From positions 1-48,144 of the forward strand of contig CAZOYD010000024.1 of the NCBI GenBank assembly GCA_964583985.1: 48,144 nucleotides of DNA. The letters are read 5' to 3'. Shown here piece after piece: positions 17,313 through 18,595 of the stretch. Source of the stretch: an uncultured archaeon. Its GTDB lineage: Archaea; Asgardarchaeota; Lokiarchaeia; Sigyniarchaeales; SOKP01. The position numbers were made by a program, and so were the translations under genes. The first letter of the stretch is position 1. Every line of letters starts with the position of its first letter. The notes beneath the pieces are model-generated. The model had not been told where the DNA came from. It was given only the letters and a program-made list of their open reading frames with translations, and did not search any database.

Positions 17313-17627
17313 ATGAATAAAAAAAAAACAGATTTACAATGGGAACTCGATGCTTCTGTTTCTGATCTCCTCTTGGATTCAAATAATGAGGATTTCGATT
17401 TAATCAAGCACGAGTTTATGCAGAGAATGAAATGGTTCCAAGAGGAATTTGATGAAATATTCAGTTTAAAGGCTCATGCTATTACCGAAAAAGAGAGTGA
17501 ACTAGCTTGTGAAATTTTAGATGAACTTTCGGAGACGATTAATGAATATAGAGATGAGGGAATGCTTCAAGAATTAGTCTCCACCTTAAACAAGATTGAA
17601 AAGAATCATCCTGAACTTTTTGAATAA
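17313..17627 (+). CDS. Acidic helical hypothetical protein
   Basis: 104-aa ORF with ATG start and plausible composition. Confidence 0.7.
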   Translation: MNKKKTDLQWELDASVSDLLLDSNNEDFDLIKHEFMQRMKWFQEEFDEIFSLKAHAITEKESELACEILDELSETINEYRDEGMLQELVSTLNKIEKNHPELFE

Positions 17628-17713
17628 TTAAATCTGATTCTTTAAATATTTTTTGTCAAGATCAAAAATATAGGCTCAAAAATGATAAACTTCTTCAAGA
17701 AATAAATAGAAAG

Positions 17714-17876
17714 TGGGAACCGAGGGAATATCCACGCGTTTGGCAATCAAACGCATTTTTGAACCCCCGACCTACAGGTATCCGCGCGCAATAAGTTGCT
17801 TATAGGATCTGGAGCCTGTTGCGTTCGGCTATTAGGTTTAACGTTCACTCTACATACCGGGCTACGCTAGGTCCCC
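17714..17876 (-). tRNA. trnW: tRNA-Trp(CCA) with three introns (D-arm about 22/23, anticodon loop 37/38, T-loop about 59/60)
   Basis: Acceptor GGGGACC/GGTTCCC plus A73; D-arm GCGT-AGCCCGGTA-TCGC; anticodon stem ACAGG/CCTGT with loop CT-CCA-GA; T-arm GGGGG-TTCAAAT-CCCTC. Removing 17853-17824 (30 nt), 17808-17780 (29 nt) and 17757-17728 (30 nt) gives a 74-nt cloverleaf. CCA end is not encoded. Boundaries are uncertain by 1-2 nt. Confidence 0.9.
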
Positions 17877-17998
17877 ATGTGGTTATGAAGTTATAAAATA
17901 TTTCATGAAATTTATATTTTAAGATTAGGCAAGTTTGCTCTCGTCATTGAACCTATTTTAAAGAAAAATAAATATAATTTGGAAGATTTATAATTAAA

Positions 17999-18595
17999 AT
18001 GAAAAAATTAGGGGAGTTGAGTCTGATATCAATAACATTGATTCAGATCATTGTGTCTGTAGCGATTTCTTTAACATTCCAATTCATCATTCCCCTTGCT
18101 TGGCAACCACTTGATGCGTTTGAAGCGGGAAGAATGATATATCATGGAGAGGAAGGGACAAATATTGTTATTTTTACCGTGAGCCAGTGGTATTTCTCTT
18201 TTTCTATATCGTGGCATCTGAAGCGTGATAATAAATACATAAACAATTTTTTAGTATATTCTATTCCAGGTTTATCTTCAATAGTTTTCATAGAATTCTT
18301 CTTTTATGGACTATATTATGATTATATCCACCTACTTACTTTGATAACGGCATTATATATTATCACAAAAAAACGGGATACTCTAATTCCCATACAAGCA
18401 ATACCTAATTTTTTACTTGTGACTTTCTGGTTATTTTCTGTGTATTTCTTGAGATTGGCTTATTATAATTCACCATTTAGCGATTATTTTCTTAGGTGGT
18501 TGTTAACGTCAATTGCTAATCTTGGAATTTGGTGTTATATCATAATCAGATATAGAAAAGATAAAGAAAAGAATAGAAATTCAAGTAAGCTTTGA
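17999..18595 (+). CDS. Integral membrane protein of unknown function
   Basis: About 6 hydrophobic segments. Confidence 0.72.
   Translation: MKKLGELSLISITLIQIIVSVAISLTFQFIIPLAWQPLDAFEAGRMIYHGEEGTNIVIFTVSQWYFSFSISWHLKRDNKYINNFLVYSIPGLSSIVFIEFFFYGLYYDYIHLLTLITALYIITKKRDTLIPIQAIPNFLLVTFWLFSVYFLRLAYYNSPFSDYFLRWLLTSIANLGIWCYIIIRYRKDKEKNRNSSKL

Follow-up and report, generated by a model that had tools for sequence, protein, structure and literature searches.

A tRNA-Trp(CCA) gene interrupted by three introns with relaxed splice motifs in a Loki-type Asgard archaeon, and its intron alleles within the genus

The window considered here is the whole stretch of DNA that was analysed, 48,144 nucleotides in length, and belongs to a MAG of 138 contigs and 3.8 Mb which is rated 100% complete with an estimated contamination of 5.25%. 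The tRNA-Trp gene under study sits within a gap of 371 nt, with open reading frames at 17313-17627 and 17999-18595 on either side. It forms an island of elevated GC content, 46% vs approximately 28-30% in the flanks, and within the gene the exons display 62% GC vs 43% for the introns. The coordinates of the gene, of its parts and of the other features mentioned in the text are given in Table 1.

Table 1. Positions of the tRNA-Trp gene parts in the window and of related features elsewhere in the genome
Feature	Position	Strand	Remarks
tRNA-Trp(CCA) precursor gene, whole, 163 nt	17714..17876	-	Discriminator A73; CCA not encoded
Exon 1, 23 nt	17854..17876	-	Acceptor 5' strand, U8, A9, D-stem 5' strand, D-loop to U22
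Intron 1, 30 nt, D-arm 22/23	17824..17853	-	Gene positions 24-53
Exon 2, 15 nt	17809..17823	-	D-stem 3' strand (C23-C25), A26, anticodon-stem 5' strand, C32-G37, anticodon CCA
Intron 2, 29 nt, canonical position 37/38	17780..17808	-	Gene positions 69-97
Exon 3, 22 nt	17758..17779	-	A38, anticodon-stem 3' strand, variable loop AGGUC, T-stem 5' strand, U54-A59
Intron 3, 30 nt, T-loop 59/60	17728..17757	-	Gene positions 120-149
Exon 4, 14 nt	17714..17727	-	U60, T-stem 3' strand, acceptor 3' strand, A73
AT-rich TATA-like box, TATTTTATAA	17891..17900	-	15-24 nt upstream of the mature 5' end; weak evidence at 31.7% GC
Oligo-T stretch 3' of the gene	17697-17713	-	Located by eye from the sequence; weak evidence at 31.7% GC
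EndA alpha, 207 aa	L001:1453-2076	-	Catalytic Tyr, His and Lys kept
Second EndA paralogue, 205 aa	L002:1423-2040	-	Phe and Ser at M. jannaschii Tyr115 and His125; Lys kept
rnhB insert, 30 nt	G000:C1:127777-127806 (L074 2078-2107)	-	In-frame TAA in DEAGRGP
Multi-insert tRNA-like genes (examples)	C1:112852-113016, C27:21821-21996, C27:30196-30341, C66:17266-17400, C105:3324-3487		

Upon removal of the three inserts (30 + 29 + 30 nt), the four exons add up to a product of 74 nt, which is called tRNA-Trp(CCA) by ARAGORN. The call survives the retention of the anticodon intron only, in which case a tRNA-Trp with intron is reported, and nothing is returned if the D or the T insert is retained or when the full precursor is submitted. 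The deduced mature tRNA displays G1-C72, A73, U8, A14 and G18 G19, the anticodon loop CUCCAGA, the variable loop AGGUC and the T-loop UUCAAAU. Its CCA anticodon is held in a loop of 7 nt, with U33 and a purine at position 37, and this loop is invariant across the orthologues. G1-C72 and the discriminator A73 constitute the archaeal/eukaryal-type tRNA-Trp identity set; both are present in the gene, and G1-C72 is invariant in the 21 mature orthologues. The single mismatch, U13-U22, arises from the D-arm junction. In the minimum free energy fold of the precursor, all four cloverleaf stems (acceptor, D, anticodon and T) are preserved next to three separate intron hairpins, the partner of U13 in the D stem being then the last A of the intron. 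The preliminary description of this DNA, made from the letters alone, proposed that the 163-nt gene yields a 74-nt tRNA-Trp once three inserts of about 30 nt are taken out, and this is borne out both by the ARAGORN call and by the intron-free alleles described below.

The gene escapes the usual detection procedures. ARAGORN reports no tRNA in the window and Rfam returns nothing in the window at the gathering threshold; at E <= 10, no tRNA match is obtained in the region 17500-18100. These blanks indicate that the gene is hidden rather than absent. The expectation that tRNA-Trp may be reported missing from such genomes is upheld, as ARAGORN and the Rfam tRNA model both overlook the gene. Additional searches were devoted to the possible presence of another tRNA-Trp, a point raised in the preliminary description. 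A scan of the whole genome for the combination of acceptor stem, T-arm and CCA anticodon stem-loop, with introns allowed, identified tRNA character at the focal locus only. A second whole-genome scan for CCA stem-loops in a GC-rich context gave no other match with a T-arm, and BLAST of the gene against the genome detected no second copy. No other candidate was thus found in a roughly complete genome by these heuristic scans and by BLAST, a search which is blind to split, permuted or very unusual genes and to unassembled DNA. When the three introns were compared to the genome with blastn-short, only self-hits were obtained, so at this sensitivity they are not a repeated mobile element.

The tRNA gene set of the genome as a whole was also surveyed. 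ARAGORN finds 10 intron-free tRNAs in the whole genome and 22 if anticodon introns are allowed, and the Rfam tRNA model finds 23 above the cut-off; such numbers in a 3.8-Mb genome imply that much of the tRNA set is hidden. The heuristic scan yields 32 tRNA-like genes, 11 of which have a T-loop of 37-40 nt, equivalent to an intron of approximately 30-33 nt. Seven of the nine T-loop introns listed are in the canonical 59/60 register with UUCR/YGRA and a 3-nt bulge, and these paralogous introns include a covarying UUCG/CGAA. The T-loop intron of the tRNA-Trp gene resembles those of two other tRNA genes (z = 5.2 and 4.1, the score being reached by 0 of 500 shuffles), a similarity that is partly forced by the common helix and bulge. 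Many other tRNA-like genes, 130-176 nt in length and in several cases 146-176 nt, carry two or three inserts, and examples are included in Table 1. Two of these, C27:30196-30341 on the plus strand and C27:21821-21996 on the minus strand, have a clearly homologous T-loop intron with the core ACTTAAAT...GTTAAG, a sharing that recalls the copying of introns between tRNA genes in Thermoproteales. ARAGORN also calls a tRNA-SeC(TCA) at C27:19492-19584, which fits a selenocysteine system, as is known for Lokiarchaeota.

The locus was compared by BLAST to 60 related genomes and the orthologues were extracted, giving 29 distinct precursor sequences. Every orthologue possesses an anticodon intron, of 21-29 nt. 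It is the only intron in L011, L012, L017, L052, L059 and L060. It is accompanied by an intron at D-arm 22/23 in L004-6, L040, L057, L070 and L073, and by a T-loop intron in L007-9, L015, L036, L041, L045, L046, L054, L066 and L072. All three of these sites are occupied in the focal gene and in L010/L033. There is also a second D-loop site at approximately 15/16, after G15, which is occupied together with the anticodon site in L013, L014 and L016, and together with both the anticodon and T-loop sites in L064 and L071. The ends of the introns at this second site, AUUUAA...GCAAAAU, resemble the D-loop intron of the tRNA located at C1:112852-113016.

The alleles nearest to the focal gene define its junctions. 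Those of L004-6 are 98% identical to it and lack exactly the 30-nt T insert, leaving TTCAAAT; the T insert is also absent from L057, L070 and L073, where the T-loop again reads TTCAAAT. In L007, with 90% identity, it is the 30-nt D insert that is missing, again exactly, which leaves GGTAT|CGC; exon 1 of the focal gene is identical to this allele up to GGTAT. The focal D insert is absent from L007-9, L011, L012 and L015. Since natural intron-free alleles exist, the exon junctions could be fixed without any motif search, and the fit to a tRNA is more than a matter of chance. They are compatible with a cloverleaf: removal of the inserts restores a canonical fold, and the natural alleles agree with it. 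Among the 21 distinct deduced mature sequences, standard pairs occupy 437 of the 441 cells of the stem alignment, and two-sided compensatory changes are seen in 9 of the 21 pairs.

The splice motifs were examined individually at the junctions so defined. At the D-arm site, exon nucleotides CGGU (17a-20) pair with GCCG at the 3' end of the intron, and the helix is bordered by bulges of 3 nt each, AU|G on the 5' side and AA|C on the 3' side. Both the helix and the bulges had been described from the letters and are present in the fold. Cutting after the second bulge nucleotide yields exactly the sequence of L007. The outer helices are nearly absent, so that the motif is relaxed and HBh'-like. In L040 an unrelated intron occupies the same site, and its H' sequence AUCG still pairs with CGGU, which amounts to covariation; in the D-arm intron of L010, UCCG stands opposite CGGU with three pairs. 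All three introns at D-arm 22/23 end with CGAA before C23.

In the anticodon intron, the exon nucleotides C32 U33 C34 C35 face GCGG, with C34 opposite C. The 3' bulge AU|A38 is proper and is followed by the anticodon stem, while on the 5' side the bulge widens into a larger loop without h', making the motif hBH-like. The mismatch reported in this central helix by the preliminary description is thus real, and it is kept in nearly all orthologues, the base opposite C34 being unpaired in them. The C32-G pair is kept as well, and U33-R and C35-G are retained in most orthologues. A conserved element, AUCCYNUWDGCA, occupies the 5' half of this intron (17796-17808, minus strand) genus-wide; the 3' half varies. 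An alternative helix, UCCA/CGGA with a cut at 38/39, was rejected, because it would shift the register of the anticodon stem and shows no better conservation. In euryarchaea such as Haloferax and Pyrococcus, the tRNA-Trp intron carries a box C/D guide and is located at position 37/38. The present intron occupies the same position but is only 29 nt long and contains neither a C (UGAUGA) nor a D (CUGA) box, and therefore it cannot be a guide RNA.

The T-loop intron contains the 8-bp hairpin UGCGUUUG/CAAACGCG that had been noticed previously. Its central helix had been described as GUUCA/UGGAU, of 5 bp instead of the usual 4; this is one possible reading, and the usual 4-bp helix, in which UUCA (54-57) pairs with UGGA between two 4-nt bulges, AAAA and UAUU, also fits. 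With bulges of this size, the rule of cutting behind the second nucleotide of each bulge would lead to a T-loop of 8 nt, and cuts at AA|AA and UAU|U are needed to obtain the 7-nt loop of the relatives. The 8-nt loop does not arise when the T stem dictates the 3' cut or when a 5-bp helix is assumed. The latter reading adds a G53-U pair and gives the product of the relatives by the rule of two nucleotides after the helix, at the cost of depriving C61 of G53. The 3' bulge of the homologous T intron in L007 measures 5 nt. Altogether, none of the three introns displays the strict hBHBh' motif, which consists of a 4-bp helix, two bulges of 3 nt and the two outer helices. A relaxed form (HBh', hBH or an enlarged bulge), with a helix between the exon and the 3' end of the intron, is present in all three, and the description of the splice motifs as relaxed is confirmed by the folds and by the orthologue comparison.

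The genome encodes machinery that would suit such substrates. Two EndA loci are present, and both proteins match PF02778 and PF01974. Over its full length, the alpha protein is similar to the catalytic alpha subunit of Aeropyrum pernix (3P1Z_B, E = 1e-36). The alignment of YGAPLGISKPR with YGQPLDVEKPR of A. pernix is gapless through the L1/CSL loop and puts K65 opposite K44. In A. pernix, the CSL loop and K44 confer cleavage of relaxed motifs (PMC5829648). The second paralogue fits a non-catalytic, structural beta subunit, because the catalytic Tyr and His are replaced by Phe and Ser. RtcB is encoded as well. An (alpha-beta)2 EndA with the L1 loop and its lysine was reported bioinformatically in Asgard archaea in 2018, along with incomplete tRNA sets (PMC5829648). 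The permissive EndA anticipated in the preliminary description thus has a counterpart in the genome at the level of sequence: the subunit architecture consists of an alpha paralogue carrying the triad and the CSL/L1 Lys and of a beta-type paralogue devoid of the Tyr and His, which points to the broad-specificity type.

The maturation pathway that we propose can be briefly summarized as follows. The gene would be transcribed as a precursor of approximately 163 nt, in which the cloverleaf stems would form from the exons and each insert would fold in its own hairpin. At each junction, four exon nucleotides and the 3' end of the intron would constitute the central helix of a relaxed bulge-helix-bulge. 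An EndA of heterotetramer type, combining the catalytic alpha with its Lys-bearing L1/CSL and the non-catalytic beta, would cut both bulges of each motif, presumably at the positions within the enlarged bulges that the alleles of the relatives indicate. The four exons would then be ligated by RtcB into the 74-nt tRNA, with CCA added afterwards. Cleavage and ligation at this gene are predicted on these grounds, and the three introns may well be removed independently of one another.

We consider it very likely that this is a functional tRNA-Trp(CCA) gene of a Loki-type Asgard archaeon, apparently the only one of its genome, with three introns spliced by EndA/RtcB; the gene is probably essential. 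Among the other explanations, the one deserving most attention accepts the gene and its three introns as real and displaces at least one junction by 1-2 nt. A D junction at 21/22 would supply A22 and convert U13-U22 into the Watson-Crick pair U13-A22, and a T junction at 57/58 or 58/59 would give UUCAAUU, which has a natural equivalent in the TTCAATT of L011; the run of A at the 5' site of the T-loop and the 4-nt bulges add to the ambiguity of the cut. However, GGTAT|CGC and TTCAAAT are the sequences of the nearest intron-free alleles, the BHB rule applied to CGGU/GCCG leads to 22/23, and the paralogous T-loop introns of the genome are in the 59/60 register, so that a displacement of this kind appears rather unlikely. 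That the locus is a decaying pseudogene with accumulated insertions, the working tRNA-Trp being unassembled, split or permuted, is far less probable still. The three interruptions, the imperfect splice motifs and the draft state of the MAG with its 138 contigs could be taken in its favor, but the exons are undamaged and retain all conserved tRNA positions, the stems covary across the 21 distinct orthologues, the interrupted architecture is retained in many species and the introns are better conserved than the flanks. The absence of another tRNA-Trp candidate in the genome scans and in BLAST argues in the same direction.

An assembly artifact would account for the three-intron state in another way, by joining a strain having the D intron with a strain having the T intron. 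Close relatives do display either the D and anticodon introns (L004-6) or the anticodon and T introns (L007), and in the comparison with L004-7 the D and T introns occur together in the focal genome only. Nevertheless, the T intron is only about 80% identical to that of L007 and the D intron is one base off that of L004-6, so neither half was copied from a sampled strain. Both flanks are syntenic with those of L004-6, and independent three-intron alleles exist in L010/L033, L064 and L071. We regard a chimera as the least probable of the explanations, with a very small chance of being correct.

The same comparisons bear on the history of the introns. L004-6 are the nearest relatives (approximately 80% identity in the syntenic flanks) and L007 is more distant (approximately 70%). 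Between the focal gene and L004-6, the D intron is identical at 29 of 30 positions and the anticodon intron at 29 of 29, whereas the protein-coding flanks, syntenic on both sides, are only about 80% identical. As the two introns are more conserved than the flanks, this suggests that they are constrained and under selection themselves. The T-loop intron appears to be inherited, since a homologous one is found in the more distant L007; the most economical scenario would be its precise loss in the lineage of L004-6. The focal D-arm intron is common only to L004-6, and may result from a gain in the common ancestor with these organisms or have undergone a loss in L007.

Regarding the host, the preliminary description had drawn its parallels from Thermoproteales, and the lineage implied in this manner does not hold. 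The GC content is 31.7% for an assembly of 3.8 Mb, and most of the congeneric records are MAGs labelled Promethearchaeota, a phylum of the kingdom Promethearchaeati, the others bearing the names of other Asgard groups. Thus Hodarchaeota, Hermodarchaeota, Odinarchaeota and Thorarchaeota appear as labels of MAGs (L038, L051, L056, L060) that share identical tRNA-Trp genes with genomes of the same genus; because identical genes occur under different Asgard phyla, the record names are unreliable as to the group. In Thermoproteales, multiple non-canonical tRNA introns combined with an (alpha-beta)2 EndA are classic (PMC4090602). The tRNAs of this order likewise contain up to three BHB-type introns at non-canonical positions (Sugahara 2008; Fujishima 2010, as reviewed in PMC4090602), and similar introns occur in different tRNA genes, their removal requiring an (alpha-beta)2 EndA with CSL. 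These organisms differ from the present Asgard host, with its 31.7% GC, in phylum and lifestyle.

Closer parallels have been described in other Asgard archaea. In Atabeyarchaeia and Freyarchaeia, 92-95% of the tRNA genes have introns, often several of them and at non-canonical sites (Valentin-Alvarado 2024, PMC11291895). A 2026 census preprint (bioRxiv 10.64898/2026.10.13.758758) counts 2.2 intervening sequences per gene in its focal families and describes inserts in the D-arm that tRNAscan-SE overlooks, gains that recur, and a location of the inserts at BHB motifs. The multi-intron tRNAs of both studies resemble the present gene in having several introns of approximately 20-30 nt in the D-arm, in the T-arm and at 37/38, with repeated gains on terminal branches and an EndA of (alpha-beta)2 type. 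Both papers are centered on families of Atabeyarchaeia and Jordiarchaeia, whereas the present genus belongs to Promethearchaeota (Loki-type), and the main text of the preprint contains none of the terms 'Lokiarchae', 'Promethearch' and 'Trp'. The evidence presented here consists of a series of alleles of a single gene, with or without the individual introns, within one genus. Individual relaxed introns have equivalents elsewhere: the hBH intron of ARMAN-2 pre-tRNA-Cys is located in the T-loop at 59/60, as here, and the HBh' intron of M. kandleri pre-tRNA-Glu is likewise a relaxed D-loop motif, but at 20b/21 vs 22/23 here (PMC5829648). Efficient cleavage of these two introns in vitro needs an EndA with a specific loop (PMC5829648). 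Those are other organisms and other tRNAs, and in the present case both kinds of intron are combined in one gene with a 37/38 intron.

A similar insert was encountered in a protein gene. The sole RNase HII match of the genome, rnhB, is interrupted by one internal TAA and its frame reads GLDEAGR[I*FISNYMLT]GPVLGPMV. The RNA of the insert folds into UGGU, a bulge AGA, a 9-bp hairpin, GUUG and a bulge ACA; cuts placed behind the second nucleotide of each bulge (AG|A and AC|A) remove 30 nt and restore DEAGRGP. This insert is a candidate for an mRNA intron spliced by EndA, and it falls in one size class (approximately 30 nt) with the introns of the tRNA-Trp gene. A loose scan of the whole genome for hBHBh' motifs with inserts of 26-38 nt gave 1605 matches vs 1640 in a mirror-sequence control; since the control matches as many, nothing can be concluded from the scan at this stringency, the genome being AT-rich. 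We propose tentatively, with somewhat more reserve than conviction, that the tRNA-Trp introns may be part of a genome-wide class of EndA/RtcB mini-introns that also interrupts protein genes, subject within the genus to gain, to precise loss and possibly to exchange between tRNA and mRNA.

Multi-intron tRNA genes with non-canonical sites and (alpha-beta)2 EndA with L1 have already been published for Asgard archaea, and the gain provided by this gene is therefore incremental. Its allele series (anticodon; D and anticodon; anticodon and T; D, anticodon and T; two D-arm sites) maps the splice sites without RNA data and documents intron turnover within one genus, including a probable precise loss. 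It thereby bears on the gain and loss of archaeal tRNA introns in the closest relatives of eukaryotes. The bulges of 4-5 nt and the conserved helix mismatch constitute concrete substrates for delimiting the range of Asgard EndA. As neither ARAGORN nor the Rfam tRNA model detects what is apparently the only tRNA-Trp, conclusions on decoding and completeness drawn from such MAGs will be wrong as long as multi-intron tRNAs are not included in the search. Should the mini-intron class be real, splicing of the tRNA type would be a general step of gene expression in this Loki-type lineage.
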